From: a bacterium
GTDB taxonomy: Bacteria > Zhuqueibacterota > Zhuqueibacteria > Residuimicrobiales > Krinioviventaceae
DNA: 64,000 nt
Direction: 5' to 3'
Assembly: GCA_963693055.1 (NCBI GenBank)
Contig: OY843751.1
Coordinates: 1,718,252 to 1,782,251 of the forward strand
Shown: positions 1,762-20,847 of the stretch, one piece after another
Numbering within the stretch: position 1 is the stretch's first letter
How the letters are laid out: the number at the start of each line of letters is the position of its first letter
Translations under genes and position numbers: made by a program
The notes under the pieces: model-generated
What the model saw: only the letters and a program-made list of their open reading frames with translations
Databases searched by the model: none
Told to the model about the DNA's origin: nothing

Positions 1762-4700
1762 TTATACCCTTTCCGTATAGAATGTATCCTTGTATCGTAT
1801 CACACATTTTACTCCATTTTCAGATTCAAATTTTATATTGCCTTTTAATTGGTTTTCAACAAGAACAAGAATAATCCGTAATCCTAAATGGCTATCAATA
1901 TCAAGATCAAAGTTTTTTGGGAAACCGATTCCGTTATCCGAAACACATAGCTCAATTTCTTCTTCTTTTTTGGCTAGATGGATGTGAATAGTTCCTTCTC
2001 TTTTATCCGGGAATGCATGCTTTAGAGAATTTGATATTAACTCATTCAGTACCAGGCCACAAGGGATTGCGGTATCAATTAAAACAGATACACTTTCTAA
2101 ATCAAAGTCGACAGTAATTCTGTTGGAATTTAAATCAAAACTATCAAACAGAATGTTACCCAGATCAGTTATATAATCTTTCAAGTCTATCCGTGAAAGA
2201 TTAAAAGATTTATATAATTTTTCATGTACTAATGCCATTGAGTGTATGCGATTTTCCATTTCTTTAAATATTGACAATACTTCTTTATTGGTGGTGTTAT
2301 GGGCTTCCATGTTAAGTAGGGATATAATTACATGCATATTGTTTTTTGTACGATGATAGAGTTCTCTTAATAGCGTTTCCTTTTCCACCAGGGTCCGTTT
2401 AATTTGTTCTTCTGCTTGTTTTTGTTCAGTAATGTCAAGTATCACACCTGTTACTTTTAGTGGATGGCCTGATTCGTCTCTCTCTATATCTGCCTTTGAT
2501 AATATCGTTTTTCTGGTTTTTGTATTATATGTAAGAATATCAAATTCTAAATTATATTCTTTATCATTTTCAATGAGATCAACCAATGCCTGGTGCACTC
2601 TATCTCTTTCCGGAATGCAACCCTCAACTTTTTCTGTTGAAAAAGAATCAATATCCTTTTCAAAACCGTAAATTTTTTTCGCTTCGTCCGATCCCCAGAA
2701 TTGTGTTGTCTGTATATTATATTCCCAGCTACCCACATGCCCAATTGCCTGGGCTTTTTCATAACGCTTCTCGCTCCCAATTAGAGCATCTTCCATCCGT
2801 TTGAGGTCAGTAATATCAGTAAAAGTTACAATAACCTGAGTAATATTTTTCTCATTATCAAAAACTGGATCCGCATTAACCAGGAGCCATATATCATTAT
2901 CTCTGGCAGGACGATGCACACCTACTATCAAGTTTCTTACAGGTTGGAGAGTTGTAATGACCTGATTAACCGGATATTCTTCAAGTGACAATTTTGTTCC
3001 ATCTTTGAGGAAAATGTACCATGAAGGATCAATGGCTTTTTTCCTCAGTATCTGGTCTTCTGTTAATCCTAGTAATTCCTGTGCTTTTTGATTAGCTATC
3101 AATATTTGAGTATCCGCTCCATGTACAACCACCGCCGTTTGTATTTTCTGAATCAATTCCCGGAATTTTTCTTCACTTTTTTTAAGCTCATTTTCCGCTT
3201 GTAACCGTTCTTTTTCCTGTTGATCTCTTTGCAATCTTGCATTCAAAATGGGTGAGATGTAATTGGTAATACTCTCCAAAATTTCTTTGTCTTGTTCAGT
3301 ATAACCGTTTTCATTATTAGCAACTGAAATTAAACCAATGGATTTATGTGAATAGACTATCGGTACAGATAGAAAATGTTTGATTGTAACATGTCCAGTT
3401 GGTGTATTAAAGGGGCCATCGGAATACAGTGCTTTTTTTTCTCTGATCGATCTTCCCCATAGGGTGTTTCCCCATGTATGCTGTGGGAAAATAATAGACT
3501 TGTCCGAAACCTGGCATTCTTCCCAAATTTCCCGTGTCATGCTTGGAATAACCAGGTCACCATTTTTCTCAATAAATCCAAATACGCCGTAATGGCTTTT
3601 CATCACTTGAAGTACTATCTCTAAAACTTTACTATACATCTCTTCATCGGTAAGAGAAAGAAAAATATTTGAAATTTGGTTCTGGATTGATTTGCGTTGT
3701 TCCGATTCTATGAGTTTCTCCTCTACCTGTTTTTGATCGGTAATGTCAATTCGGACACCTGTTAATCGGAGCGGCTTTCCCTCTTTATCTTTTTCAACAG
3801 TACTACCAATTACACTATGCCATCGGTACGAGCCATCAGCGTGTTTCATTCTGGTTTCATAACGATAATCACTGGCAGCACCGCTCAATACATCTTTAAT
3901 TTTTGTTACTACACATTCTCTATCATCAGGATGAATCCTGGTTACCCACAAGTCCCGATCAGAAAACCCTGCTACAGGTTCATATCCAAGCATTGTATAA
4001 TATGTAGGTGTTGTGTACCAGATATCATCTTTTAAAAGCCAGTTCCAGATACCAATTTTTGTGACTTCTGTTGCAACGCGTAACCGTTCTTCGCTTTCTC
4101 TAAGCGCTTTCTCTGCCTGTTTACGTTTAGTGATATCCTCTATTGTTCCTACCGAACGAACAGGTTTGTCATTTTCATAAATGGTTTCGCATTTCTCATG
4201 TACAAACTTGATTCTTCCTTCCCCAAAATCAAGGCGGTGTTCAATAGAATATGGAATTCGGGTTTTGAGTGAGTTGGTAAAGGCCCATTTGACTGCTTTG
4301 CGGTCATCCGGGTGGATAGCATCAAGTATTATTTTATAGGTTATATCAAGTTTTTCAGGATCGATCTCAAAAATACGATAGGATTCATCTGACAATGTAA
4401 TGGTATTTGTTTCCAATTCCAGTTCCCAGCTTCCAATGTGGGCCATTCGCTGTGCTTCGTTGAGACGCATGGCTGTATATCTGAGTTTATCTTCTATCCG
4501 TTTCTGTTCAGTTACATTGTGTTCCAGTACAGTTACTCCGATTATTTCACCCGTTTCAGTTTTGATAGGATAATGATATACCTGGAAATAGTGTTGTGTA
4601 TTGGACTCTTTTTCTGAATATGATTTATCAACCCGTTGTTCCCCGGCCAAGACACGGTCCAGGTTTTTCCTGATTATTTCGCGATTTTTTTGCAATGGAA

Positions 4701-5100
4701 TATACTCTAACATGCTATTACCGATTTCGATTTTTGCATTATAATTGGTTTGCATATACATTGCATGTGAGTGGTTAAAATTGATGTATCGATATTGCCG
4801 GTCTACTGAATAGACTTTGGTATTGCTACAGTCAAGAATATTGTATAATGCGGTTATCTGGCAATTCAGTGTTTTATCAAATTGTTTATTTTCATTAGTC
4901 TCTTTTTTTAAATTACCCGAATACATGATAACTTTGTTTTTTAAAGTAAACCATAGCAATAATGCTATTCCTGACAAAACTAACAATATCAATATTATTT
5001 GAAAATTGTTTATAAGATTGGTATAGAAGACTATCCCCTCAGTATCTACTGTTTTAGACTTTATTTGATGAATCAGGTTGTACAGTGTTGAGATTTTCAT
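1762..5100 (-). CDS. Multi-sensor histidine kinase: N-terminal TM segment, several PAS/PAC domains, GAF-like region, HisKA_2-type kinase core
   Basis: 1112-aa ORF; repeated PAS-like blocks; HRTKNNMHVIISLL H-box typical of HisKA_2; DNGIGFP ATPase motif near C-terminus. Confidence 0.85.
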   Translation of the reverse strand: MKISTLYNLIHQIKSKTVDTEGIVFYTNLINNFQIILILLVLSGIALLLWFTLKNKVIMYSGNLKKETNENKQFDKTLNCQITALYNILDCSNTKVYSVDRQYRYINFNHSHAMYMQTNYNAKIEIGNSMLEYIPLQKNREIIRKNLDRVLAGEQRVDKSYSEKESNTQHYFQVYHYPIKTETGEIIGVTVLEHNVTEQKRIEDKLRYTAMRLNEAQRMAHIGSWELELETNTITLSDESYRIFEIDPEKLDITYKIILDAIHPDDRKAVKWAFTNSLKTRIPYSIEHRLDFGEGRIKFVHEKCETIYENDKPVRSVGTIEDITKRKQAEKALRESEERLRVATEVTKIGIWNWLLKDDIWYTTPTYYTMLGYEPVAGFSDRDLWVTRIHPDDRECVVTKIKDVLSGAASDYRYETRMKHADGSYRWHSVIGSTVEKDKEGKPLRLTGVRIDITDQKQVEEKLIESEQRKSIQNQISNIFLSLTDEEMYSKVLEIVLQVMKSHYGVFGFIEKNGDLVIPSMTREIWEECQVSDKSIIFPQHTWGNTLWGRSIREKKALYSDGPFNTPTGHVTIKHFLSVPIVYSHKSIGLISVANNENGYTEQDKEILESITNYISPILNARLQRDQQEKERLQAENELKKSEEKFRELIQKIQTAVVVHGADTQILIANQKAQELLGLTEDQILRKKAIDPSWYIFLKDGTKLSLEEYPVNQVITTLQPVRNLIVGVHRPARDNDIWLLVNADPVFDNEKNITQVIVTFTDITDLKRMEDALIGSEKRYEKAQAIGHVGSWEYNIQTTQFWGSDEAKKIYGFEKDIDSFSTEKVEGCIPERDRVHQALVDLIENDKEYNLEFDILTYNTKTRKTILSKADIERDESGHPLKVTGVILDITEQKQAEEQIKRTLVEKETLLRELYHRTKNNMHVIISLLNMEAHNTTNKEVLSIFKEMENRIHSMALVHEKLYKSFNLSRIDLKDYITDLGNILFDSFDLNSNRITVDFDLESVSVLIDTAIPCGLVLNELISNSLKHAFPDKREGTIHIHLAKKEEEIELCVSDNGIGFPKNFDLDIDSHLGLRIILVLVENQLKGNIKFESENGVKCVIRYKDTFYTERV

Positions 5101-5323: not shown

Positions 5324-6067
5324 TCATCCATCTACCAACTTTCTGATCCTTTTCAGCATATTCTCATAATGTGAGCCGTGCCAGTAGACGTTGCCGCAAC
5401 CAGTGCATTGGTGAAATTCGTTGAAATATTGTTCGGTTTTGGGAGGGATGCGATCATGGATTTCGTGCTTGTCTACCGGTTCAAGCAGGCCGTTGCATTC
5501 AATACAGCGGCTGAACGGATTTGCCTGTCCCCGTAGGTCCAAACGATCCAGGATTTCTTTTAGCTGTTGTTCCGGTTCGGTATGATGCAGGTACGCGCCA
5601 TGAGTGACGCGACTGTTTTTTAGTATACCACGGTCCCGTGTGAGTATGATACGGTGCTCTTTGCGTGCAATATCAATAATCTCATCATCTTCGTAATCAT
5701 TGCGGTAGAGGGTGTCGAATCCGGCCATGCGTAAAAGTCGGGACAGCTTGCCGAGATGTACATCCAGAATGAATCTGGATTCCCGCAATGGTTTGGATCG
5801 TAAGCGGACGAGTGGGGAGATGTCCATACTTTCAAATACAGGATAGACCGCGATCCGGTCATTGTGCCGGAGTTTATATTCAAATCCCACCGAGACACTG
5901 TTCGCGAGAATGATTTCTACCTCGGTATGGGGTACACCGCAGGCTTCAATGGCATCCTTGATTCCCGGATTGCCATTAAAGGTGTATGTGAATATGGTTT
6001 TGCGTTGCACCGGCGGCAGGAAATCGTTCAGTTCTTCGTAAAATCGAAATTCGGCTGTATTGGACAT
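5324..6067 (-). CDS. Mut7-C RNase domain (DUF82) protein with N-terminal ubiquitin-like domain and C-terminal zinc ribbon
   Basis: 247 aa; PIN-like central region (ILTRDRG), C-terminal CIECNG...CTGCG zinc ribbon; 15 bp downstream of tryptophanase on the same strand. Confidence 0.65.
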   Translation of the reverse strand: MSNTAEFRFYEELNDFLPPVQRKTIFTYTFNGNPGIKDAIEACGVPHTEVEIILANSVSVGFEYKLRHNDRIAVYPVFESMDISPLVRLRSKPLRESRFILDVHLGKLSRLLRMAGFDTLYRNDYEDDEIIDIARKEHRIILTRDRGILKNSRVTHGAYLHHTEPEQQLKEILDRLDLRGQANPFSRCIECNGLLEPVDKHEIHDRIPPKTEQYFNEFHQCTGCGNVYWHGSHYENMLKRIRKLVDG

Positions 6068-6081
6068 GATTATCGTTAGCG

Positions 6082-7461
6082 TTATGATTTAACCAGTTCG
6101 AATTTTGCCGTAAAATGACGCAGGAACGGAGCCTGCTCGGTTATTTTTACTCCACGTATATTTTCTTTGGTGTCATTAACCTCCAGAATAGATTCCACAA
6201 CATAATCGATATGGCTTTGGGTATATACCCGACGCGGAATAGCGAGCCGCACCAGCTCCATAGGGGCGGGGAGTTCTGCTCCGGTTACCGGATCTTTGCG
6301 CGCAAACATGACTGAACCGATCTCGACCGTACGAATTCCCGCGGCAAGATACAACTCGATAGACAGTGCTTGTCCCGGATACTGCTCTACAGGTATGTGC
6401 GGTAGCATGGTTTTGGCATCGATATAGATTGCGTGTCCACCCGGTGGTTGTACAATGGGCACGCCGTAATCCGAGATATGCCTGCCCAGATACTGGGTGG
6501 AGGCAATACGATAGCGAAGGTAATCCTCATTCAGAATCTCTTTGAGCCCTATGGCTATGGCTTCCAGGTCACGGCCCGCGAGTCCGCCATAGGTTGGAAA
6601 TCCCTCGGTGAGGATGAGCAAGTCGCTTTCCTGGCGAGCCAGGTTATCGTCGTTAGTGCAAAGGAAACCACCTATGTTCACCAGCGCATCTTTTTTAGCG
6701 GACATGGTACAGCCGTCCGCATACGAGAACATTTCGTGCACAATCTCTTTGATGGTTTTGTTGGCGTATCCTGCTTCACGTTTTTTGATAAACCAGGCAT
6801 TCTCGGCAAAGCGGCAGGCGTCGAAATAAAAAGGGATTTTATGTTTGTGTGCAATGGCTGCCACAGAGCGTATGTTGGCCATTGATACGGGTTGTCCGCC
6901 ACCGGAATTGTTAGTGATGGTGAGCATGATGAGCGGAACGCGATCTACGCCCACCTCGTTGATGGTTTTGAGCAGTGCATCGGTATCCATATCGCCTTTA
7001 AAGGGCAGAGGATTTGCAGGATCGAGCGCTTCGGGTTTGAGTAAATCGCGGGCCTCGGCGCCTTGAAATTCAACATTGGCGCGGGTGGTGTCGAAATGGG
7101 TATTGTTGGGCACCACATCGCCTTTTTTACACAGGATAGAAAAGAGGATGCGCTCAGCCGCGCGGCCCTGGTGAGTGGGAATGACATGGTCGAATCCGAA
7201 TATATCCTGCACCGTCTCTTGCATGTGGTACCAGCTTTTACTGCAGGCATATGCTTCGTCTCCGCGCATAATACCCGCCCACTGCTCTGAGCTCATGGCG
7301 GACGTGCCACTGTCGGTGAGCAGGTCAATCAATACATCGTCACTATTGATCTGGAACAGATTATAGCCTGCTTTTTTCAGGATTTTTTCGCGCTCTTTGC
7401 GGGTGGTCATGCGGATAGGTTCAACGGATTTGATTTTAAACGGTTCTATGATAACGGTCAT
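6082..7461 (-). CDS. tnaA: Tryptophanase / tyrosine phenol-lyase family beta-eliminating lyase (PLP-dependent)
   Basis: 459 aa, alignable along its length to E. coli TnaA as recalled (DLLTDSGT, PTHQGR, SMSAKKD PLP-lysine region, FTAKF C-terminus); AGGAG RBS. Tryptophanase versus tyrosine phenol-lyase cannot be separated by eye. Confidence 0.9.
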   Translation of the reverse strand: MTVIIEPFKIKSVEPIRMTTRKEREKILKKAGYNLFQINSDDVLIDLLTDSGTSAMSSEQWAGIMRGDEAYACSKSWYHMQETVQDIFGFDHVIPTHQGRAAERILFSILCKKGDVVPNNTHFDTTRANVEFQGAEARDLLKPEALDPANPLPFKGDMDTDALLKTINEVGVDRVPLIMLTITNNSGGGQPVSMANIRSVAAIAHKHKIPFYFDACRFAENAWFIKKREAGYANKTIKEIVHEMFSYADGCTMSAKKDALVNIGGFLCTNDDNLARQESDLLILTEGFPTYGGLAGRDLEAIAIGLKEILNEDYLRYRIASTQYLGRHISDYGVPIVQPPGGHAIYIDAKTMLPHIPVEQYPGQALSIELYLAAGIRTVEIGSVMFARKDPVTGAELPAPMELVRLAIPRRVYTQSHIDYVVESILEVNDTKENIRGVKITEQAPFLRHFTAKFELVKS

Positions 7462-7573: not shown

Positions 7574-7720
7574 ATTGGATAAATGATTTGGGGATATATT
7601 GATAAAGTGATTGATTTGATGGATTTTTTTGTTAAGTTGGAATATTGCTATATTCAGGTATGAGGACAAGAACCTCCAGATTATTACATCGGTTTTTATT
7701 GTGAAAATTGTGGATTAATT

Positions 7721-8056
7721 ATGAAATACAATCATATCGGCATTCCGACAAGTGAGCGTTTTGAAGATGAAATTGAAATTCCACATTTGAAAATTACAGT
7801 AAGCGATCACAAAAACAATCCATTCGGAATACAATGGATGCGTTACCGGGACGATGCTCCGTATCCGGATGTCGTTAAATCCATTCCCCATGTGGCATTT
7901 GAAGTCGATGATCTTGATATTGCTTTAAAAGATCAGGAAATTATTATATCACCCAATAGTCCCACACCCGGGGTTATTGTCGCTATGATTTTGGTAAATG
8001 GTGCACCTGTAGAGTTGATGCAAATAAACAGAGCTGTTTACAGGGATGAAATTTAA
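7721..8056 (+). CDS. Small hypothetical protein, possibly glyoxalase/VOC-like
   Basis: 111-aa ORF divergent from tnaA; weak resemblance to VOC-fold proteins (HIGI...PHVAFEVDDLD). Confidence 0.45.
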   Translation: MKYNHIGIPTSERFEDEIEIPHLKITVSDHKNNPFGIQWMRYRDDAPYPDVVKSIPHVAFEVDDLDIALKDQEIIISPNSPTPGVIVAMILVNGAPVELMQINRAVYRDEI

Positions 8057-8138
8057 TGATGGAAATAAACTTGTAACCGATGTGAATTATAATAGTGAGT
8101 AAACCCCGGATGAGATGTCCGGGATTTATATAAAACAA

Positions 8139-9593
8139 TTATTTCATTTCTGCCCGTAAAACATAGCCATATTCTGAAATGCGTTTTGCCGGGAATTGGA
8201 TAGTAAGACCGTCTTTTGTCTGTTGCCAATCTATTTTTTGCTCACTTCCAAGCATGGAAATATTTTTAATTTCAGGAGCATAATCCATTTGATCAGATAG
8301 GGATTTGATGGTTACTGTACCATCATCCGGGCAGACCAGGGCCATAATGTACAAGTTGTTGTCTTTTTGGGTAAACCAGAAATCCTGTTCCTGAAAATCT
8401 GACCTGAATCCATCACGTTTACGTTGAGTCGTACTTTTTATTTCAATTTTTGTGGGACCTTCATGTGTTACATGCTAGGAATGTCTTCCATAAATGGCTT
8501 CGCTGTTGATGGACATCCATTTGCCAATTTCGTGCAACTGGTCGATACTTTCCTGGGGTATGGAACCATCACCTTTGGGACCAATATTGAGCCAATAATT
8601 CCCGCCCTTTCTGGCAATAGCCATAATCCAGTAAATCAATTCTTTGGTGGACTTCCAATCCACATCATAACTTTTATATCCCCAGATATTGTTCAGGGTA
8701 CCGGGAGCTTCCCAGTACACGTCACCGCCTTCTCTGTTATCCGGGATTTTATTGTCACCGGTGACCCAATAATCGCCCCAATCATTACCTACTAGGTTGT
8801 TGACAAGGCAGTTGGGTTGAATATCGTAAATCAGTTTGTAAAATTCAAAACTCTGTTCTTGTGTCATATGATTCGCCATATCGTACCAAATCTCGATGAG
8901 GTTAGGAAGCGTATTTAACAGTTCTACCATTTGCGGTTTGGATTTGACCTCGAGATATTCCTCGAAAGAAACCGGAGAGGGGTCCCACATGTTTGCAGGC
9001 CAGTCTGCCTATTTGCTCGTATCGTCCGGATTTTCCTTTAAATAATTGAGCACACCCGCATTGCCGCCATCCATCTAATCGGTAGAATGTGAATAATAAA
9101 TACCAAAGCGCAGTCCTTGTTTTTCACATTCCTGTGAGAGGGCTTTGATAGGATCGATGTCAAAGGGGGTACTGTCAATAATATCGTAATCCGTTACTTT
9201 TGAATCGTACATTGCAAATCCATCATGGTGCTTGGGCATTGCTATTTCATATCGCATACCTGCGTCTTTTGCCAGTTTGACCCAGGCTTTTGCATCAAAT
9301 TTAACCGGATTGAACTGGCTGCATAATTGTTTGTACTCGTCCCTGGGTATTTACGCGTGGTAAAATATCCATTCACCCAATCCCGGGATCTTTTCTCCCT
9401 GCCAAATACTGGCAGGCATGGAATAGACACCCCAGTGACTAAACATGCTAAATTTATAATCATTAAATTGTTCCAGTGCCTGGCTTTTTGTATCGTGCAT
9501 TGCCTGCCAATCCTGCAATAAAGAATCATCGGCATAAACAAAAGTGCATACAAGAAAGAGTACAAGTATTGCAAATCTTTTAATCATCAACAT
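8139..9593 (-). pseudogene. GH29 alpha-L-fucosidase interrupted by four in-frame stop codons, no frameshift
   Basis: ORF fragments 9351..9593, 9075..9257, 8475..8990, 8139..8354 share one frame; read-through gives a continuous GH29-like protein (signal peptide, [36 protein letters not shown]). Stops at 9351-9353 TAA, 9075-9077 TAG, 9009-9011 TAG, 8475-8477 TAG. Confidence 0.8.
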
Positions 9594-9867
9594 GTCTCCT
9601 GTAGAAGCGTTTGGTGTTCAAACTTTAAGTTGTGCTATTAATTTTATAAATATTTTCATTCTAATATAAATATATAATTGAAAATATTAAAATTTATTTG
9701 TTTTTACAATAAAGTTTACTATTTTTATTAGTATAGGAACCATTATTTAATTGCAGGGGTTTAAAAATAACCAGTAATTGATGCTCAATCTATCAATGGG
9801 GTAAATCCTATATTTGATAATTGCCTTTTATAAAACACCAAATTTTTAATTTTCTAGGAGGGAGAAA

Positions 9868-12201
9868 ATGTTTAAAAGAATCAGCTTGTTAATCTTGATC
9901 ATTAGCTGCAGTCTTTTAGCGACAACCATTGATGACAAAGTATTGTTTTTGGATGGGGATGGAGATTATCTTCACCTACCGCAACCTATTGTCAATTCCA
10001 GTGCATTTACAATCGAGGGATATGCATATATGAATGGATCCGGAGGAGGTGTCTGGAGCCAGAATCCGTTTTTCCAACAGAGAAGCCCATATCTGGGGGA
10101 TGTTGATAGATCAACTTTGATTTTTGTAACAGAAAACCAACATGGTGAAATCGGTATGGGGGTGGCGTCCATTGGTTATTCTTATCAAGATTATCAGTAT
10201 AATCCCAGAGCCGATTACGGTGAGTGGCACCATTATGCATATGTAATTACCGGAGACAATGTTTGTATTTATCTAGATGGAGTAAAAATATTAGAAGATG
10301 TATGCAATCAACATGGTGATTATACATCAGAGATATATTTCACTGATATTGGTCGTCATACTATGGTTGATACTGATTATGGATTTTTTAATGGAATGCT
10401 AAATGAAATGCGAATTTGGAACAGGGAACTGAGCCAAAGTGAGATCCAGGAATTGAATTTGGGCCCGATTGATCTGGATACATTTGATTCATCTGAAAAA
10501 GGTCTTGTTGCTTATTGGCGTTTTGATGAAATTAAATATCTGGGCACGGAAGATGGTATTGTTCGGAGAATTGCGGATTTATCCGGAAATAACAATACAG
10601 GTACGCTTGTAGATGATGCTGTTATTATTGGTAATACCGAATCGATTAGTGCGAATAAAATCAAAGTAGAATCTGTAATATACAATGAAAATGATGTTGC
10701 GTTTGTTCCAATAAATGTTGATTTTTCTGAAATAACAGGATTTAACACAATCACTTTTAGTATTGAAAAGTCTGACAAGCTGGAACTACTTCAGATCATT
10801 CCTAATTCTCAACTTTTATCCATACCCAATACTGATATTACTTTTGAAAGTGTTGAAAATTCAACGGTGATAACCGTACAATGTAGTGAGCCCATTTTAC
10901 CAAAAGGTCTGCTTGTATGGTTGAAAATGTCTGTTCTTGATAATAACAGTGATTTTATCAATGTTAACCTTGATGCCGCAGAGGTTGGGGGACTTGGTGA
11001 AGCTCCATTGAAAATTTCAGGAGCTGTAGTAAAATCAACTGTAACCAAATCCGGAGACGTATATTACGATGGCATTGTTGATATGAATGATTGCAAAACA
11101 ATACTTGAACATGTATTGGGAATGTATGAAATTGATCCGGATTTGTTTAATGCTGCAGATGTTAATCAGGATGGTTCTATAACATCTCTGGATGCCAGTA
11201 TTATTCTACAATATATTAATGGACTTATTGATAACCTACCGGTGCCTTATACAACCAATATGTACCCCAGCTCAGGTTCTATCAATTTAGGAGATCCCAT
11301 CCCAGGAGCCGGTCAACTTGTTTCGATTCCAATTGTTATGAATCAAGGGGATAATATCTTTTCATTGTTTTGTGAAATAAGCTTTGATAGTGAGAATTAC
11401 ACCTTTAATGGATTTAATATGATTTACAATATCGTTCAATTATATTCACGTGTATCTGACGGTTGTTTAAAATGGAGTTTTGCACTGGCTGAACCTCTTT
11501 CAGGAAATGCTATTTTGGGTTATATGCAATTCACAAAAAATAATGTTGATGCCGGTAGTGCTATACTTGCAAGTGATATTTGCTTGAATGAAATCAATAG
11601 TACCGTCCCGGTAGAAATGTCCTCCTTTACGGCTTATAATGAGGATGGTTGTGTTTTACTCCAGTGGACAACAAAGACAGAAACCAATAATTTGGGATTC
11701 CATTTATATCGGTCAAGTACCTCAGAAGGTCCATGGACAAAAATTAATTCATCTATAATCCCAGGTAATTGCACTTCGTTAATAGAAAATAAATATACAT
11801 TTGTAGACACTGATATTGAAAATTTTTCAAAAGTTTATTATAAAATAGAGCAATTGGATACGGATGGCAGTACAGTTTCTTTTGGCCCCGTGGAACTGGA
11901 AGTTGGAGATGGTACTGTACCTAGTCGTTTTGCATTAAAACAAAATTATCCGAATCCATTTAATTCAAATACAATTATAGAATATAATGTACCCAGATCC
12001 GCTTATGTTAATGTTTCCATTTTTAATACAAGGGGACAATTGGTTAGGGAACTTTTAAATGCCAATCAATCAGCAGGGAATCATGATCTCGTGTGGCATG
12101 GAACTGATCAATTTGGCAATGTGGTCTCTTCCGGTGTTTATTTGGTAAGAATGACCGCGGGGAATTATAATAATACATTAAAAATGCTTTATGTGAAATA
12201 A
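9868..12201 (+). CDS. Secreted T9SS cargo protein with LamG/concanavalin-like domain, dockerin-like repeats and C-terminal T9SS sorting domain
   Basis: 777 aa; signal peptide; LNEMRIWNRELSQSEI (LamG-like); DVNQDGSITSLDASIILQYINGL (dockerin-like); C-terminal LKQNYPNPFNSNTIIEYNVP...GVYLVRM (T9SS type A sorting domain). Confidence 0.8.
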   Translation: MFKRISLLILIISCSLLATTIDDKVLFLDGDGDYLHLPQPIVNSSAFTIEGYAYMNGSGGGVWSQNPFFQQRSPYLGDVDRSTLIFVTENQHGEIGMGVASIGYSYQDYQYNPRADYGEWHHYAYVITGDNVCIYLDGVKILEDVCNQHGDYTSEIYFTDIGRHTMVDTDYGFFNGMLNEMRIWNRELSQSEIQELNLGPIDLDTFDSSEKGLVAYWRFDEIKYLGTEDGIVRRIADLSGNNNTGTLVDDAVIIGNTESISANKIKVESVIYNENDVAFVPINVDFSEITGFNTITFSIEKSDKLELLQIIPNSQLLSIPNTDITFESVENSTVITVQCSEPILPKGLLVWLKMSVLDNNSDFINVNLDAAEVGGLGEAPLKISGAVVKSTVTKSGDVYYDGIVDMNDCKTILEHVLGMYEIDPDLFNAADVNQDGSITSLDASIILQYINGLIDNLPVPYTTNMYPSSGSINLGDPIPGAGQLVSIPIVMNQGDNIFSLFCEISFDSENYTFNGFNMIYNIVQLYSRVSDGCLKWSFALAEPLSGNAILGYMQFTKNNVDAGSAILASDICLNEINSTVPVEMSSFTAYNEDGCVLLQWTTKTETNNLGFHLYRSSTSEGPWTKINSSIIPGNCTSLIENKYTFVDTDIENFSKVYYKIEQLDTDGSTVSFGPVELEVGDGTVPSRFALKQNYPNPFNSNTIIEYNVPRSAYVNVSIFNTRGQLVRELLNANQSAGNHDLVWHGTDQFGNVVSSGVYLVRMTAGNYNNTLKMLYVK

Positions 12202-12211
12202 GGAAAATTTT

Positions 12212-12269
12212 CCGGTATTTACAAGATGCTTTTCAAAAAAAGCAGATACTATAAATACCGGATTTTTTT
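12212..12269 (+). terminator. Terminator-like hairpin after the T9SS cargo gene
   Basis: 10-bp inverted arms ccggtattta / taaataccgg around a structured loop, followed by a run of seven T. Confidence 0.5.
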
Positions 12270-12415
12270 ACAAATTTATTAAGGGCTAAACTACGACATA
12301 TCGGCGACAGCGTAAGAGGTAGTTGATTTAAATTTTTGACCTGTATTATTGAATCAGGAATTGTAAATTCAGGGGTTCATTTCCGAGCGATAGTTTATAA
12401 GCAATTTAATATAAA

Positions 12416-13135
12416 TTATTCATTCAACAAATTTGCAATTTCTTTACTTATTTCATCTGCCAGTTTGTTATAGCCATCCTGATTATAGTGTACATTACCC
12501 TTGGATGCACTATACTTTTCAAGCTCTGGTTCAATCAGGTTATACAAGTCAATAACCGGGATATTGTTTTCTTGCATGATCTTTTTTGCAATATTGTTTC
12601 TATCAATTACAACCTGGTTTTTTTTTGGATCTAACTTTAGATCAGGTTCATCTGACGGGAAGGGAGTTGTCTAGGAATAGACCAGTTTGCAATTTCTGGA
12701 TTTTTCAGATTTAAGAAATTTAACAAATTTTCTCAAGCTCTTTTCATATTGGCTATTGTCAAGATGCTAGCCATGAAGTCCATTATTAAAATGTATTAAT
12801 ACATGGTTTTAATTTGCCATAGCAATTTTTGATTCAATCATCAATGATGGATCTGCAATGGATCTGGATGTGGCGTATCGATCGCAATTGCCTTGCGGCA
12901 GCTTTTCTGAAACTGCTTTATAGTATCCTCTTGAAATAGAATCCCCAATAAACAATACACGGGGCTTTTCTGTATCGGGTTCATTTGCCCACCAGAAATC
13001 GCACCACTCGATTTTTTCACGAATTACTTGTGCTTTCGTGCAACCTGCTATAATAAAACCCGTTAATAATATAAAATAAAGTGTTTTTGAAGAAATTATC
13101 CTGTTCCATTGAAACCCGGGCATCGCGTTTTTCAT
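12416..13135 (-). pseudogene. SGNH/GDSL hydrolase (lipoprotein-type signal) interrupted by three in-frame stop codons, no frameshift
   Basis: N-terminal fragment 12809..13135 has lipobox and RVLFIGDSISRGY block I; reading on in the same frame through TAA (12809-12811), TAG (12767-12769) and TAG (12671-12673) gives ...HVLIHFNNGLHG*HLDN...KLVYS*TTPFP...NVHYNQDGYNKLADEI..., ending at 12416. Confidence 0.75.
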
Positions 13136-13529
13136 TACTTATTCCTTTTAATTGTTAATTTTTCAGTATGTTTAAAAAGGAATAAAATAATTTGATAAAA
13201 ATCAATATAATATTTCATTGAAAAATACAGATCCATTTCAATCAAAATATATATCATTGCATTTTTCCGGTATTTGTGATATACTTACTAGTCACATGAG
13301 ATAATATATGTAAAGGGGGGGTAAATTAATCAAAGACAATATTACTGCATTCTCTGATAAGGTAGTGTAAGGATGGAAATTTATAAATATTAATGCGGGA
13401 AAATTATGATCTGTCTATAAATATTCCGGTTTATACGTTTGAGGCATGAAATATTTTTTAATCAATATCAATGTTTTTAAAAAGATTTAAGAGTAAGTTG
13501 GAATAAAAGATAATAATTTAAGGTACAAT

Positions 13530-14033
13530 GTGACAAAAATTTTTATGTATATATGGATTTTTCTCCTATTAGTAAATTTTATACTTTTATTTGTAAAGAT
13601 GTTTTCTATTTCTGAAACCCATGTTAAATTTGGAATAGGAATTAAATTTCTTTTTTTACATTTTTTTGTTATCATGTCTTTAGGATATTATTTTTCTGTC
13701 ATTGAACCATTTTTTTTGAATGGAAAAGAACCTAATCTGAACGCTACTATTCTGTTGCTATTTTCCATTTTGGGAGTTTATGTTGGATTTAGCTTTCGAT
13801 TTCAATGTAAGGGAAAGTATTATATATGGTTCAACGGCCTATATATTCGAAAAGTATCTTCCGATACCATCAAATATATTATTTTCTATGTGAAAAAGGG
13901 ACAAACACAAAAAATTAAGTTTGTTAGAGATGGAAAGAATATTACTTTTCGATTTGGGAATTATTTTGAATATGTTATTTATAAATTTGCACATGAAAAC
14001 AAAATTCATATAAAAAGAAAAAAATATAGTTGA
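13530..14033 (+). CDS. Orphan hypothetical membrane protein in a very AT-rich island
   Basis: 167-aa ORF with two N-terminal hydrophobic helices and a Lys-rich C-terminal part; strongly AT-rich compared with flanks; followed by its own terminator; start uncertain (GTG 13530 or ATG about 13545). Confidence 0.4.
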   Translation: MTKIFMYIWIFLLLVNFILLFVKMFSISETHVKFGIGIKFLFLHFFVIMSLGYYFSVIEPFFLNGKEPNLNATILLLFSILGVYVGFSFRFQCKGKYYIWFNGLYIRKVSSDTIKYIIFYVKKGQTQKIKFVRDGKNITFRFGNYFEYVIYKFAHENKIHIKRKKYS

Positions 14034-14045
14034 ATTTTAGTATGT

Positions 14046-14073
14046 ATAGATGGCGATTTGTCCATCTTTTTTA
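14046..14073 (+). terminator. Rho-independent terminator after the AT-rich orphan ORF
   Basis: agatgg-cgatttgt-ccatct hairpin followed by a T-run. Confidence 0.55.
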
Positions 14074-14172
14074 GGAAGTGTAAAGATTTTTGTGTAAATC
14101 ATGAACAAGGGTTCAATAACCCGTAGGGTTATTGAATTTCGATCGCTGATTGATTTGCACACACTTTTCCAA

Positions 14173-15505
14173 GGGACTGTAAATTCGCTTGTGTTTTAAA
14201 AACAAATATTACATTTTATTAAATACAGGAGAATTTACCAATGAAACTTACACCTGAAATTATTAAACAACTTGAAAAAGATTTTGAAAATTGCAAGACA
14301 GCAGACGATCTGCTGGGCAAAAATGGTCTGGTCAAGAATTTGATTAAGGGCATATCAGACCAAATTATGGAAGCTGAAATGACCCAGCACTTGGGCTATG
14401 AGAGACATTCTTCAGAAGGTGATAACAGTGGCAATAGTAGAAACGGTCACAGCAGCAAAACAGTGAAGACAGATTTTGGTGAAATTGACATCAAAATCCC
14501 CCGTGATCGGAATGGAGAATTTGACCCGGTACTTGTCAAAAAGCACCAGCGTGATCTGGGCAAAATAGATGAAATTATCGTTGCCTTATATGCCAAAGGT
14601 CTGAGTACAAGAGACATCAAAGACCACCTGGAAACACTTTACGGCCTGGACGCTTCCCCAACATTTATTTCCAATGTTACCGAACGGGTACGCGAGCTTG
14701 TCGTTGAATGGCAGTCAAGACCGTTGGATAGCGTTTATCCTATTGTTTATTTGGATGCTATCCACTATAAGATACGTGACGAAGGGCGTATTATAAACAA
14801 GGCCGCCTATACTGTACTGGGAATCAATGGTGAAGGCTTTAAGGATTTACTTGGTATTTGGATCGACCAGTCCGAGGGCGCCAATTTCTGGCTGTCTGTT
14901 TTAACCGATATACGAAACCGTGGGGTTGAAGATATTCTGATTGCATGCGTAGATGGGCTGAAAGGCTTTCCGGATGCTATTGCCAGCATTTTTCCCGATA
15001 CTGAAGTCCAGCTTTGTATCATCCATCAAATCCGTAACTCGCTTCGTTATGTTGCATCAAAACATCAAAAAGAATTTATCAAAGATCTGAAGCTGGTTTA
15101 TCAAAGCACAACTAAAGAAAACGCTGAACTGCAACTGGATCGCCTTGAACAAAAATGGGGGGTCAAATATCCCATTGTTATCAATTCCTGGAGAAAAAAC
15201 TGGGACAACCTGTCCAACTATTTTAAATATCCCGAAGAAATTCGGCGAATGATCTATACCACAAATAGTGTAGAGGCTCTGCACCGACAGCTTCGCAAAG
15301 TCACTAAAACCAAATCTCTGTTCCCCCACGATGATGCGTTGAAAAAAATGCTGTTTCTGGCCTACAGGGATATTGCTAAAAAATGGTCGCAGCCCATCAG
15401 AAACTGGGCCTTTGTTGTTTCTCAATTTTCTATTATATTTAAAGACAGGATGAAAATCCAAATATAGCACTACTATTCATTTACACAAAAAAGTTTACAG
15501 TCTCC
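14173..15505 (+). mobile_element. IS256-family insertion sequence, about 1.33 kb, with imperfect terminal inverted repeats
   Basis: Left end gggactgtaaattcgcttgtgt (14173-14194) matches the reverse complement of the right end (15483-15505, ggagactgtaaacttttttgtgt); single transposase ORF inside. Boundaries are approximate to a few bp; no clear target-site duplication seen. Confidence 0.7.
14241..15467 (+). CDS. IS256-family (mutator-type) transposase
   Basis: 408 aa with the typical IS256 transposase layout (YLDAIHYKIR, CVDGLKGFPDAI, CIIHQIRNS); RBS aggag upstream. Confidence 0.9.
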   Translation: MKLTPEIIKQLEKDFENCKTADDLLGKNGLVKNLIKGISDQIMEAEMTQHLGYERHSSEGDNSGNSRNGHSSKTVKTDFGEIDIKIPRDRNGEFDPVLVKKHQRDLGKIDEIIVALYAKGLSTRDIKDHLETLYGLDASPTFISNVTERVRELVVEWQSRPLDSVYPIVYLDAIHYKIRDEGRIINKAAYTVLGINGEGFKDLLGIWIDQSEGANFWLSVLTDIRNRGVEDILIACVDGLKGFPDAIASIFPDTEVQLCIIHQIRNSLRYVASKHQKEFIKDLKLVYQSTTKENAELQLDRLEQKWGVKYPIVINSWRKNWDNLSNYFKYPEEIRRMIYTTNSVEALHRQLRKVTKTKSLFPHDDALKKMLFLAYRDIAKKWSQPIRNWAFVVSQFSIIFKDRMKIQI

Positions 15506-15633
15506 TTTTTTATTTTTCATTAATTAGTTATATTTGATTTTTGTTTGATTATAGATTTATTCTCATTCTCAATCCTGAATAATATTGTATTTTCAGGCGT
15601 TTGTGATATACTATTTAAAAGTATTGAGGAAAG

Positions 15634-17283
15634 ATGAATACCGGAGCTGTATTACTTATCCATAAAAATGATAATGTTGCAGTGGCTCTGCGGCCACTTG
15701 TGGCAGGGGAGCGTGTCAATGCTGGGGATAAATCTGTTATTATAAAAAATGATATTCCTGCCAAGCATTCTATTGCTTTGCGGGACATGCCTGCATCAAA
15801 TCCTATAATTATGCACGGTATTTTGGTTGGCGAGACGACTTGTCCTGTTAAATCCGGAGAGCGTTTAGGTACACATAATCTCGTGCACAAGACCGCAGGG
15901 TTCGAGTATCGCGGAGTTGTGCAGCAATGGACGCCACCGGATGTGTCTACTCTGCAGGATTTAACCTTTATAGGCTATATGCGTAAAAATGGTTCTGTGG
16001 GTACGGCTAATAACTGGATTGTGGCGCCGCTGGTGTTTTGTGAAAATGAAAATATCCTGAAACTGAAAACGGCTTTTGAGGCTATTAACGGACTGCACGG
16101 ACGATCCCGACACCGTCAGCTTGCAGACCAGTTGTCCCATGCCTGGAGCTCCGGTACGAGTGTGGATGAATTGACATCACTTGATTTTACCTACAGTGCA
16201 GAATCTAACCAGTCCCTTTTCCCGAATGTGGACGGTATCAAGTTTCTTACGCATGAATCCGGTTGCGGTGGAACACGTAAAGACGCACATGATTTGTGCG
16301 CTCTTTTGGCGGGATACATCACGCATCCCAATACCGCCGGGGCGACTATACTCAGCCTGGGCTGCCAGAACGCTCAGATACTGGACTTATATGAAGCAAT
16401 TCATGCGCATGATCCTCAATTCAACAAACCTTTGTATATACTGGACCAGCAGCAGTACGGAAGGAGTGAATATTTGCTGGATGACGCTGTGTGTAAAACG
16501 TTTGCGGGACTCGTTGAGGCGAACGAAGCAGAACGGCAACCTGTACCTGTCAACAAACTGGTGATTGGTGTAGAGTGTGGAGGCTCTGACGGATTTTCCG
16601 GTATAACCGCTAATCCATTAATGGGCCGTATTGCTGACAGGATTGTCGCTGTTGGGGGCAGCGTGATTCTGGGCGAATTTCCCGAGTTTGGAGGTGCAGA
16701 GCAATCCCTGATCGATCGCTGCATGGATAAAGAGACAGCAGAACGGTTTATTAAGTTGTATCGGGATTATGAAGCGCGAGCCCGTTCGGTAGGTGCGGGA
16801 TTCGATATGAATCCGTCACCAGGTAACATTCGAGAAGGATTAATCACTGACGCCATGAAATCCGCCGGAGCAGTAACAAAAGGCGGCACATCGCCGGTAA
16901 CAGATATTCTTGATTATCCGGAATATGTTACTAAAGAAGGACTCAGTTTGCTGTTGACCCCGGGCAACGATGTGGAATCCACAACCGCGCTGGTAGCTGC
17001 CGGGGCAAATGTAGTGCTGTTCTCAACAGGACTCGGAACGCCCACGGGGAACCCAATTGTACCAGTGATCAAGATTGCCAGTAACACGCAGACTGCGCGA
17101 CGTATGGCAGATATCATTGATTTTGACGCTGGCGGGTTAATTGACGGGGGAAAATCCATGGAAGCATTGGCAGATGAATTGATCCAAATGATTATCAATA
17201 CTGCCGGTGGAGAGTATAATCCCAAAGCTGTACAAAACCACCAGGATGATTTTATCCCATGGAAGCGGGATGTTTCGTTGTAA
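15634..17283 (+). CDS. uxaA: Altronate dehydratase / galactarate dehydratase family (SAF domain plus D-galactarate dehydratase/altronate hydrolase C-terminal domain)
   Basis: 549 aa; N-terminal SAF-like segment, central HESGCGG and C-terminal FSTGLGTPTGNPIVPVIKI motifs typical of UxaA/GarD. Confidence 0.8.
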   Translation: MNTGAVLLIHKNDNVAVALRPLVAGERVNAGDKSVIIKNDIPAKHSIALRDMPASNPIIMHGILVGETTCPVKSGERLGTHNLVHKTAGFEYRGVVQQWTPPDVSTLQDLTFIGYMRKNGSVGTANNWIVAPLVFCENENILKLKTAFEAINGLHGRSRHRQLADQLSHAWSSGTSVDELTSLDFTYSAESNQSLFPNVDGIKFLTHESGCGGTRKDAHDLCALLAGYITHPNTAGATILSLGCQNAQILDLYEAIHAHDPQFNKPLYILDQQQYGRSEYLLDDAVCKTFAGLVEANEAERQPVPVNKLVIGVECGGSDGFSGITANPLMGRIADRIVAVGGSVILGEFPEFGGAEQSLIDRCMDKETAERFIKLYRDYEARARSVGAGFDMNPSPGNIREGLITDAMKSAGAVTKGGTSPVTDILDYPEYVTKEGLSLLLTPGNDVESTTALVAAGANVVLFSTGLGTPTGNPIVPVIKIASNTQTARRMADIIDFDAGGLIDGGKSMEALADELIQMIINTAGGEYNPKAVQNHQDDFIPWKRDVSL

Positions 17284-17495
17284 AAAAAGAAATGATGTTG
17301 TGGTTTCAAAGAGTACGATAAATTTAATAAATAATGTAACAAATAAACCACAAATATATTCGCCAGTAGGCGAACACGCGCTGACGAAAACAGATTTAAA
17401 ATGAATTTTCCTTCGACGAAATTTTATTTCGAGCGCAGTAATTAATTGCAATAATCATGGTGATTCCAGTTGTTAAAATATTTTGAATTGATAGC

Positions 17496-20130: not shown

Positions 20131-20847
20131 CTAGTTTTTACCGCCTTTGCCTCTTGAAGGTGTTGAATCATCAGAGCGTCCAAAACCTACTGTGGTATTT
20201 GTTGCTCCACGTCCCAGACAATCTTCCGGGCGGACCCAATCAGAGTCCTGACCATTGGGGATACCGTCACTGTCATCATCCGGTGCATTGTCGTTGATTC
20301 CATCACCGTCTTCGTCAACAAATGCATGCATGCTGCGACCTTTGCCATTGCCAAAACCGCTTTTGCCGCCAGCTGCTACGTAATCAGCATCCTGACCATT
20401 TGGGATTCCATCACCATCAGCATCAGGTGCATTGTCATTATATCCGTCACCATCTTCGTCTACAAAACTATTTGCGCCTTGTTTCTGACCATTTCCTGCG
20501 GCACTACCCTGACCAGCTTGTGCTACATAATCTTCATCCATGCCATTGGGGATTCCATCGCCATCTGCATCCGGTGCATTGTCGTTATAGCCGTCACCAT
20601 CTTCGTCTACAAAGCCTTCACCGGAAATACCCTGACCATAGCCGGAACCTGTACGGACATAATCTTCATCCATACCATTGGGAATTCCATCGCCATCAGC
20701 GTCCGGGGCATTGTCATTGTAGCCATCACCATTGAGGTCCACAAATTTTACACCATGTTCAGCGGTTTGTGAAAATACAGAGGTACTTGCAAATGCTGTC
20801 ATTGCCAAAGCAAGAAGCAGAACGGATAATGTTTTTGATGTTTTCAT
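20131..20847 (-). CDS. Secreted protein built of four tandem thrombospondin type 3-like calcium-binding repeats
   Basis: Signal peptide, then four copies of FVDEDGDGYNDNAPDADGDGIPNG(M/Q)D(E/A)DYV separated by Gly-rich linkers. Confidence 0.7.
   Translation of the reverse strand: MKTSKTLSVLLLALAMTAFASTSVFSQTAEHGVKFVDLNGDGYNDNAPDADGDGIPNGMDEDYVRTGSGYGQGISGEGFVDEDGDGYNDNAPDADGDGIPNGMDEDYVAQAGQGSAAGNGQKQGANSFVDEDGDGYNDNAPDADGDGIPNGQDADYVAAGGKSGFGNGKGRSMHAFVDEDGDGINDNAPDDDSDGIPNGQDSDWVRPEDCLGRGATNTTVGFGRSDDSTPSRGKGGKN
20255..20770. repeat. Four tandem DNA repeats of about 130-150 bp encoding the calcium-binding repeat units
   Basis: Near-identical blocks (ggattccatcrccatcwgcatcmggtgcattgtcrttrtakccgtcaccatcttcgtctacaaa) recur at roughly 20260, 20400, 20550 and 20680. 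Confidence 0.7.

Follow-up and report, generated by a model that had tools for sequence, protein, structure and literature searches.

ORF167, a probable orphan immunity gene against a membrane-acting Rhs toxin, in a putatively acquired single-gene islet

INTRODUCTION

Immunity to the pore-forming colicins is conferred by small inner-membrane proteins (Cei, Cia) with three to four transmembrane (TM) helices, which neutralise the pore-forming domain within the membrane. Here we describe ORF167, a gene for a predicted membrane protein of 167 residues that lies in an AT-rich stretch (positions 13136-14172) of a 64-kb segment of bacterial DNA, hereafter the window, next to an insertion sequence (IS). 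We propose that ORF167 is probably an orphan immunity gene against a membrane-acting, pore-forming Rhs toxin, carried by an acquired islet in which it is the only gene. Among Rhs proteins, Tse5 of Pseudomonas aeruginosa has a pore-forming toxin as its C-terminal domain (Tse5-CT), immunity to which is conferred by Tsi5, a protein of the cytoplasmic membrane with two TM segments (PMC9637101). The Rhs shell of Tse5 (RhsP1) releases this hydrophobic domain, whose insertion into the cytoplasmic membrane leads to depolarisation of the cell (PMC9637101, PMC10684867). EsxX of Staphylococcus aureus is a membrane-depolarising glycine-zipper toxin, and the ExiCD proteins that confer immunity to it are polytopic membrane proteins, whose genes are also found as orphans in the genomes of non-producers (PMC12744356). 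The usual mark by which an immunity gene is recognised is that a small gene is placed directly 3' of the variable tip of an Rhs protein and varies together with it (PMC4436062).

RESULTS

ORF167 belongs to a small protein family

The open reading frame of 167 codons recognised by an earlier reading of the stretch, made from its letters alone (the sequence-only reading), is present in the window:

13530..14033, + strand: ORF167, GTG start, 167 aa

A word-indexed homology search with ORF167 gave no match beyond the protein itself. An exhaustive phmmer search against 1.84 billion representatives, however, recovered 20 further relatives (best E 4e-14), mostly of 155-168 aa, which align with ORF167 over nearly the full length at 26-37% identity. 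Public genomes, with the related contig L095 (see below) included, have no homologue above about 36% identity. Residues Y84, W100, N102 and G103 are invariant in the family alignment, the last three of them within the motif WFNG, and the N-termini of ORF167 and its homologues align, which supports the GTG start. Searches of Pfam with E values up to 10 returned only a chance match to Claudin (E 0.97), and NCBIfam returned none. The sensitive search proposed with the sequence-only reading thus found distant relatives and no curated profile, and by these searches the family is small and uncatalogued.

Relatives of ORF167 lie directly downstream of Rhs proteins that share one C-terminal domain

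We retrieved the genomic context of eight ORF167 homologues. At six of the eight loci the family member lies directly 3' of an Rhs protein or Rhs tip, with a gap of -1 to 108 bp:

L085: upstream Rhs protein of more than 968 aa with a TIGR03696 core (E 6e-20); gap 39 bp
L081: upstream Rhs tip of 293 aa (6012-6893) that starts inside the core motif; gap 108 bp
L087: upstream fragment with the end of an Rhs core; its stop codon is 1 nt ahead of the start
L090: upstream Rhs protein of at least 2020 aa; gap 50 bp
L091/L092: upstream Rhs protein of 1196 aa; stop and start codons overlap
L093/L094: upstream tip of 304 aa; gap 3 bp

The core motif of the upstream proteins reads DPL...SPY.Y..NNP...D.DGK. 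It is followed by C-terminal domains of 196-232 aa, which are mutually homologous at all six loci (35-49% identity, E 1e-7 to 1e-59). These domains consist of 30-39% Gly plus Ala and contain seven to nine small-xxx-small, glycine-zipper runs apiece, of which GG.AGGLAG(L/I)TMG is a conserved example. No Pfam family matched the Gly/Ala-rich domain. A sequence search of the PDB with the toxin tip found Rhs cores only, plus the mosquito salivary proteins SGS1 and SGS4; the alignment with the latter two runs into their hydrophobic C-terminal tail.

At these six loci, then, the family member directly follows, in the same orientation, the gene that encodes the variable C-terminal domain of the toxin, and it co-varies with one family of toxin domains. 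Catalogued immunity families (Pfam Imm/SUKH, NCBIfam) gave no match to ORF167. The GC content of the family member is below that of its upstream gene at all seven loci compared, the upstream gene being an Rhs gene at six of them. In the window itself, tblastn with three of the toxin domains found no toxin or remnant (best E about 0.6, with no hit in the islet defined below).

ORF167 is predicted to combine three TM helices with a PH-like domain

An AlphaFold2 model of ORF167, built on an alignment of 17 sequences, reached a predicted local distance difference test score (pLDDT) of 93.6 and a predicted template-modelling score (pTM) of 0.79. The model has helices at residues 2-22, 36-64 and 70-88, followed by a C-terminal domain (residues 89-167) that forms a beta-sandwich with a C-terminal helix. 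The Kyte-Doolittle hydropathy profile likewise has three hydrophobic segments, so that the two TM helices counted previously become three. When the C-terminal domain was submitted to Foldseek, the top matches were all PH domains, with a best E value of 1.7e-3 and none reaching 0.001. This domain contains 19 Lys plus Arg as against 4 Asp plus Glu, and by the positive-inside rule it is therefore probably cytoplasmic. A location in the inner membrane, with three TM helices ahead of a basic PH-like domain, is thus likely for the ORF167 product.

The compositional outlier is the ORF167 gene and not its surroundings

The stretch had been described as far more AT-rich than the flanking genes, and a comparison of GC content in sliding windows, as had been suggested, was run within the 64 kb. 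The segment 13136-14073 has a GC content of 0.244, the lowest of any 938-bp stretch in the window (mean 0.387, sd 0.039; fewer than 1% of the stretches are at or below 0.27). However, the non-coding part, 13136-13529, has a GC content of 0.236, and the other intergenic spacers of the window span 0.217-0.363; its AT-richness is within the ordinary range of spacers. ORF167, in turn, has a GC content of 0.248, the lowest among the 48 genes of the window, as compared with 0.415 for the transposase gene of the neighbouring IS and a mean of 0.394 (sd 0.039, minimum 0.327) for the 46 other host genes. Thus, the description holds as to the window minimum, and the outlier is the ORF167 gene only, not the spacer around it.

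The GC content at the codon positions of ORF167 follows the order GC1 > GC2 > GC3, so that a coding pattern is kept. In DNA of 24% GC, the stop-free run around the gene extends over 178 codons, as against a mean of 59 (sd 13) and a maximum of 126 in 2000 shuffles. ORF167 is too long for a chance open frame and is a real gene. Moreover, it is intact and has kept all the invariant residues of the family, while neighbouring genes have gathered stop codons (see below). Non-coding elements were found on both sides of the gene:

13286..13529, + strand: non-coding leader of the islet, upstream of ORF167; absent from the relative L095, GC 0.262
14048..14073, + strand: terminator-like hairpin of ORF167 (14048-14067), then a T-run, with the first part of the T-tract

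Sigma-70-like hexamers are present in the leader at 13487-13514, as consensus matches only. Of the terminator attributed to the gene, the hairpin and its T-run are there, but the hairpin is weak.

ORF167 lies in an islet that is missing from a close relative

Contig L095 (390 kb) carries the same region in a related genome: its UxaA is 89% identical to that of the window, and the DNA is about 86% identical. Gene order is as in the window, with a 777-aa type IX secretion system (T9SS) protein, an SGNH hydrolase and uxaA, and the SGNH-uxaA spacer measures 170 bp; the site has neither ORF167 nor the IS. By blastn, L095 4781-9979 corresponds to window 8101-13285 and L095 9957-11653 to window 15590-17286. 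The intervening DNA, 13286-15589, is missing from L095 and is made up of an 865-bp islet, the 1431-bp IS and an 8-bp duplication. Given the empty site in L095, we read 13286-15589 as an insertion. The relevant features are:

13136..13285, no strand assigned: ancestral AT-rich divergent spacer, from the SGNH gene (- strand) to the former position of uxaA; 145/150 identical to L095 9831-9979
13273..13285, + strand: left copy of an exact 13-bp direct repeat, TTTGTGATATACT; an imperfect repeat reaches to about 13234
15513..15589, + strand: right-hand remainder of the islet, downstream of the IS; not aligned to L095, GC 0.182
15600..15612, + strand: right copy of the 13-bp direct repeat, TTTGTGATATACT; 21 bp 5' of the uxaA start codon (15634)

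If the direction of the indel is as we suppose, the islet would comprise 865 bp (13286-14073 plus 15513-15589) with a single gene, inserted in the AT-rich spacer between the SGNH gene and uxaA. The limits of 13136-14172 assigned to the island beforehand therefore need revision: the foreign DNA would run from 13286 to 15589 with the IS nested inside it, and 13136-13285, given its identity to L095, is ordinary ancestral spacer and not acquired DNA. The horizontal origin suggested for the stretch is supported for ORF167, because the gene is an outlier in GC content, the site is empty in L095, no homologue exceeds 36% identity and the homologues themselves have a lower GC content than their upstream genes.

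The 13-mer TTTGTGATATACT occurs only twice in the window, and a 23-bp piece of L095 (9957-9979) matches the DNA at either edge of the gap. An extended local alignment of the two repeat copies scores 36, as compared with 21.2 +/- 3.2 in shuffles. The sequence resembles an extended -10 element (TGnTATAcT) of the uxaA promoter, and its left copy is now oriented towards ORF167, into the islet. The left copy is 97% like L095; for the DNA that precedes the right copy, the figure is only about 70%. These junctions would fit the attL/attR type better than a fresh target duplication, although no recombinase is encoded nearby.

An IS256-family element was probably inserted later, into the terminator of ORF167

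The IS adjoining ORF167 has the following parts:

14074..15504, + strand: IS256-family insertion sequence, 1431 bp, defined by its PF00872 transposase, the limits of homology to L001 and L002, and its target-site duplication (TSD)
14112..14136, + strand: perfect 11-bp hairpin, TTCAATAACCC-GTA-GGGTTATTGAA, 39 bp inside the IS (begins 14074)
14173..14238, + strand: IS-internal direct repeat of the outer inverted repeat (IR), GGGACTGTAAATTCGCTTGTGT, at 14173-14196, then a hairpin; present in L001
14241-15467: transposase gene; PF00872 Transposase_mut, E 2.2e-120, model positions 5-378 of 379

L001 and L002 are related copies of the IS in another genome, with 85% and 84% amino-acid identity, respectively, and differing flanks. 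Both align with the window over exactly 14074-15504 and no further. An 8-bp TSD, CTTTTTTA, is found at 14066-14073 and 15505-15512; the 8-bp TSD of L001 is TGCAAAAT, and L002 shows none. In addition, transposases with at least 90% identity to that of the window are encoded on contigs of 1452 and 1527 bp, lengths that fit an element of 1431 bp. Because of these alignment limits, the TSD and the short contigs, we place the IS at 14074-15504. The left IR, at 14074, is GGAAGTGTAAAGATTTTTGTGTAAAT, and the reverse complement of the right IR is GAGACTGTAAACTTTTTTGTGTAAAT; the terminal IRs are imperfect, matching at 21 of 26 positions. A Mutator-type DDE transposase, imperfect terminal IRs of about 26 bp, a TSD within 8-9 bp and a length within about 1.2-1.5 kb are all as expected of the IS256 family. 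Its left end differs from that family in two additions, a palindromic leader of about 97 nt and a direct repeat of the IR inside the element. Outside the window, the source genome is recorded to have another transposase variant (P0030), at least 90% identical, so that the IS is present there in at least two copies.

The sequence-only reading had drawn attention to the perfect inverted repeat at 14112-14136. It is indeed there, as one of four perfect hairpins of at least 11 bp in the window, against a chance expectation of 0.17. It had been placed some 35 bp before the left end of the IS and taken as a feature of the island. Two sequences, however, resemble the right terminal repeat, one at 14074 (GGAAGTGTAAAGATTTTTGTGTAAAT) and one at 14173 (GGGACTGTAAATTCGCTTGTGT), which had been taken for the end of the IS, and the IS begins at the former, not near 14172; the hairpin is an internal part of the IS, kept in L001 and L002 with one change that preserves a G-U pair. 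Assigning the hairpin to the leader of the IS itself shifts the boundary of the element by 99 bp. The hairpin was not found in relatives of the IS at about 50% identity. It forms the apex of a stem-loop of about 97 nt, the stem of which consists of the left IR and, at 14143-14170, a partial copy of it in inverted orientation. Folded as RNA, the 11-bp hairpin has a free energy (dG) of -15.6 (z -4.1) and the whole leader of the IS (14074-14250) one of -47.7 (z -4.9). A further hairpin, at 14179-14238, pairs GUAAAUUC with GAAUUUAC, covers the Shine-Dalgarno sequence AGGAG (14228-14232) of the transposase gene and is also found in L001. Insertion sequences are well known to mask the ribosome-binding site in transcripts that read through from outside, and we accordingly read the folds of the leader as housekeeping of the IS and not as features of the island. 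Rfam gave no match over window positions 12000-16000. The stem-loop, the internal repeat of the IR and the Shine-Dalgarno hairpin are all conserved in L001 and L002. Possibly, the first 99 bp of the IS are an addition, resembling a miniature inverted-repeat transposable element, to an older left end.

The target of the IS, CTTTTTTA, belongs to the islet, being part of the T-tract behind the terminator hairpin of ORF167; with the IS removed, the sequence reads as the hairpin plus TTTTTTATTTTTC. A perfect target duplication within the islet implies that the islet came first and the IS second, and that the IS did not bring the islet with it as cargo. On this order of events, an insertion into the SGNH-uxaA spacer would have brought ORF167, and an IS256-family element would later have transposed into the T-tract of its terminator, making the 8-bp duplication.

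Genes next to the islet are decaying

Two genes to the left of the islet are broken in the window:

8142-9587, - strand: alpha-L-fucosidase gene, 91% identical to a 482-aa orthologue in L095; four in-frame stops, no frameshift
12416..13135, - strand: SGNH/GDSL hydrolase pseudogene; three in-frame stops, no frameshift; start codon 150 bp from the insertion point

The SGNH pseudogene is 92% identical in protein to an intact orthologue of 239 aa in L095, and its stops are Y109 (TAT>TAA), W123 (TGG>TAG) and L155 (TTG>TAG). Those in the alpha-L-fucosidase gene are Q79 (CAA>TAA) and W171, W193 and W371 (each TGG>TAG). Over both genes, TAG accounts for five of the seven stops, four of which arose from TGG, and nonsense changes exceed indels. 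Reassignment of a stop codon was considered and rejected, since TAG, TAA and TGA all end normal genes of the window (TAG in 9 of 48), which makes recoding unlikely. Loss of the promoter context of the SGNH gene through insertion of the islet may have preceded its decay.

On the other side of the islet, the best homologues of uxaA (15634-17283), besides that in L095, belong to candidate division KSB1 and Bacteroidota and reach only 55-59% identity. Sorting domains of the T9SS type are also encoded in the window, and its source is probably an uncultured lineage that has seldom been sampled. A second indel distinguishes it from L095, in which about 1 kb (3761-4781, including a gene for a 187-aa hypothetical protein) stands in place of about 460 bp of unrelated sequence at 7639-8101. 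Finally, four diverged tandem units of 93 nt, spaced 132-147 nt, occur at 20230-20745 within a 238-aa ORF (20131-20847, - strand), and are also found in L095; the unit may be an Asp-rich protein repeat of the calcium-binding type.

DISCUSSION

Because homologues of ORF167 lie directly 3' of Rhs proteins sharing one glycine-zipper domain, we read the family as the cognate immunity protein of that domain, and because no toxin was found in the window, we regard the window copy as an orphan. On balance, ORF167 is probably an orphan immunity gene against a membrane-acting, pore-forming Rhs toxin, residing in an acquired single-gene islet; an immunity protein was among the functions suggested at the outset, and the suggestion fits. 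The Gly/Ala-rich C-terminal domain of the Rhs proteins would be a membrane-inserting toxin that depolarises the cell or forms pores. Proteins of the ORF167 family could then neutralise it inside the membrane through helix-helix contacts, and the orphan, if expressed, could shield the cell from toxin delivered by competitors.

Several observations weigh against this assignment. The function is read entirely from the neighbourhood of homologues at 27-36% identity, and neither ORF167 nor the toxin domain is covered by a model of Pfam, NCBIfam, PADLOC or PHROGs. Two of the eight homologue loci are without a toxin: at L083 the family member stands among small genes, one of them RraB-like, and the upstream genes are unrelated and without the Gly/Ala-rich domain; at L089 a non-coding stretch of 90 bp precedes it and a transposase of the IS3 type follows. 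As to the window copy, orphan status holds for the 64 kb analysed, the promoter matches are weak and fewer than in shuffles, and the terminator hairpin is a weak one (dG -6.4 kcal/mol, z -1.35). Also, the indel that defines the islet could instead be a deletion in L095 between the two repeats.

Some of the alternatives bear on what ORF167 is and how it came to the window. That it is a chance open frame, and the stretch ordinary spacer, was the possibility that would have undone the first reading; it is in keeping with the GC content of the non-coding part, which is that of other spacers in the window, and with a word-indexed search that returned only the protein itself. It is nevertheless hardly credible for the gene, given an open frame longer than any in the shuffles, full-length if distant homologues with conserved motifs and an N-terminus aligned with theirs, a confident AlphaFold2 model and the lack of the stretch in L095. 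Transport of ORF167 as passenger cargo of the IS256-family element, as originally suspected, would account for the adjacency of the two and for the lack of both at the empty site in the relative. We consider this very improbable: the homology to L001 and L002 ends exactly at the limits of the IS and their flanks are unrelated, the element is flanked by a perfect TSD of its own within the islet, some 85 bp of the islet lie beyond it, the left edge of the islet has no IR-like sequence, and the short contigs with near-identical transposases fit the 1431-bp element. Nor does the islet seem to travel with the IS in other genomes, since the IS was seen at none of the six toxin-linked homologue loci.

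Other alternatives concern function. An effector of phage defence or abortive infection, or the remnant of a prophage or plasmid, might also present itself as a small, AT-rich gene for a membrane protein within acquired DNA, and one homologue locus of the eight (L081) is flanked by AbiEi/AbiEii modules. Abortive infection had indeed been proposed, but searches of PADLOC and PHROGs with E values up to 10 gave no match, tblastn with ORF167 found nothing in 50,697 phage or 72,556 plasmid records, the recurrent partner of the family is an Rhs toxin and not a defence sensor, and the islet holds no other gene; such a role is quite improbable. Closer to our proposal is the view that the family is an accessory of the Rhs toxin (a membrane chaperone, a helper in export or insertion, or a co-toxin) and the window copy a functionless relic. 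The evidence for immunity is positional, genes next to ORF167 are decaying, and hydrophobic effectors do need helper proteins, such as the Eag-type chaperones of type VI secretion systems (T6SS). Yet the known chaperones and adaptors of Rhs, contact-dependent inhibition and T6SS loci lie upstream of the toxin. The downstream or overlapping position of the ORF167 family, with its co-variation with the tip, is canonical for immunity genes (PMC4436062). Furthermore, a tip and a family member can form a module without an Rhs body (L081, L093), as in orphan toxin-immunity modules, and the window copy is intact while its neighbours gained stops. For these reasons the accessory role, with a relic in the window, appears unlikely, and we retain immunity as the probable function.

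A wider proposal may also be made, which as a whole is speculative and rather doubtful: that ORF167 and its toxin represent a novel pore-forming toxin/immunity pair of uncultured lineages, with a new architecture of three TM helices and a cytoplasmic PH-like domain on the immunity side, and that the gene spreads as a free-standing single-gene cassette of about 0.9 kb without a recombinase of its own, site-specific at a 13-bp promoter core, as a minimal mobile unit of interbacterial defence. What is new here would be the uncatalogued family and its three-TM, PH-like architecture; Rhs toxin/immunity pairs and orphan immunity genes are of a known kind. If the assignment is correct, an uncatalogued pair from poorly known, uncultured bacteria would be added to the few Rhs effectors that are known to target membranes, among which Tse5/Tsi5 is the one that has been studied. 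The locus would also be an unusually clean case of an orphan immunity gene, with a single gene, exact insertion boundaries and an empty site in a close relative, and it bears on how bacteria acquire resistance to the weapons of their competitors.

Compared with the described systems, the small inner-membrane immunity proteins of the pore-forming colicins are similar in kind to ORF167, but they are encoded in plasmid-borne operons and are without a PH-like domain, and ORF167 has no Pfam match to them. With Tse5/Tsi5, the ORF167 family and its partners share the layout in which the gene for a small integral membrane protein directly follows that of the toxin. The toxin tip had no match to Tse5 in the PDB sequence search, however, which speaks against homology of the toxins; two TM segments are predicted for Tsi5, as against three plus a PH-like domain of about 80 aa in ORF167, and the window ORF167 stands without a toxin partner. 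EsxX differs in being an LXG toxin of the type VII secretion system of Firmicutes and not an Rhs protein, and ExiCD are a pair of proteins encoded in 'antitoxin islands', unlike the single gene of the ORF167 islet. Yet EsxX/ExiCD resemble the arrangement proposed here in that a glycine-zipper toxin is countered by polytopic membrane proteins, of which orphan copies are known.

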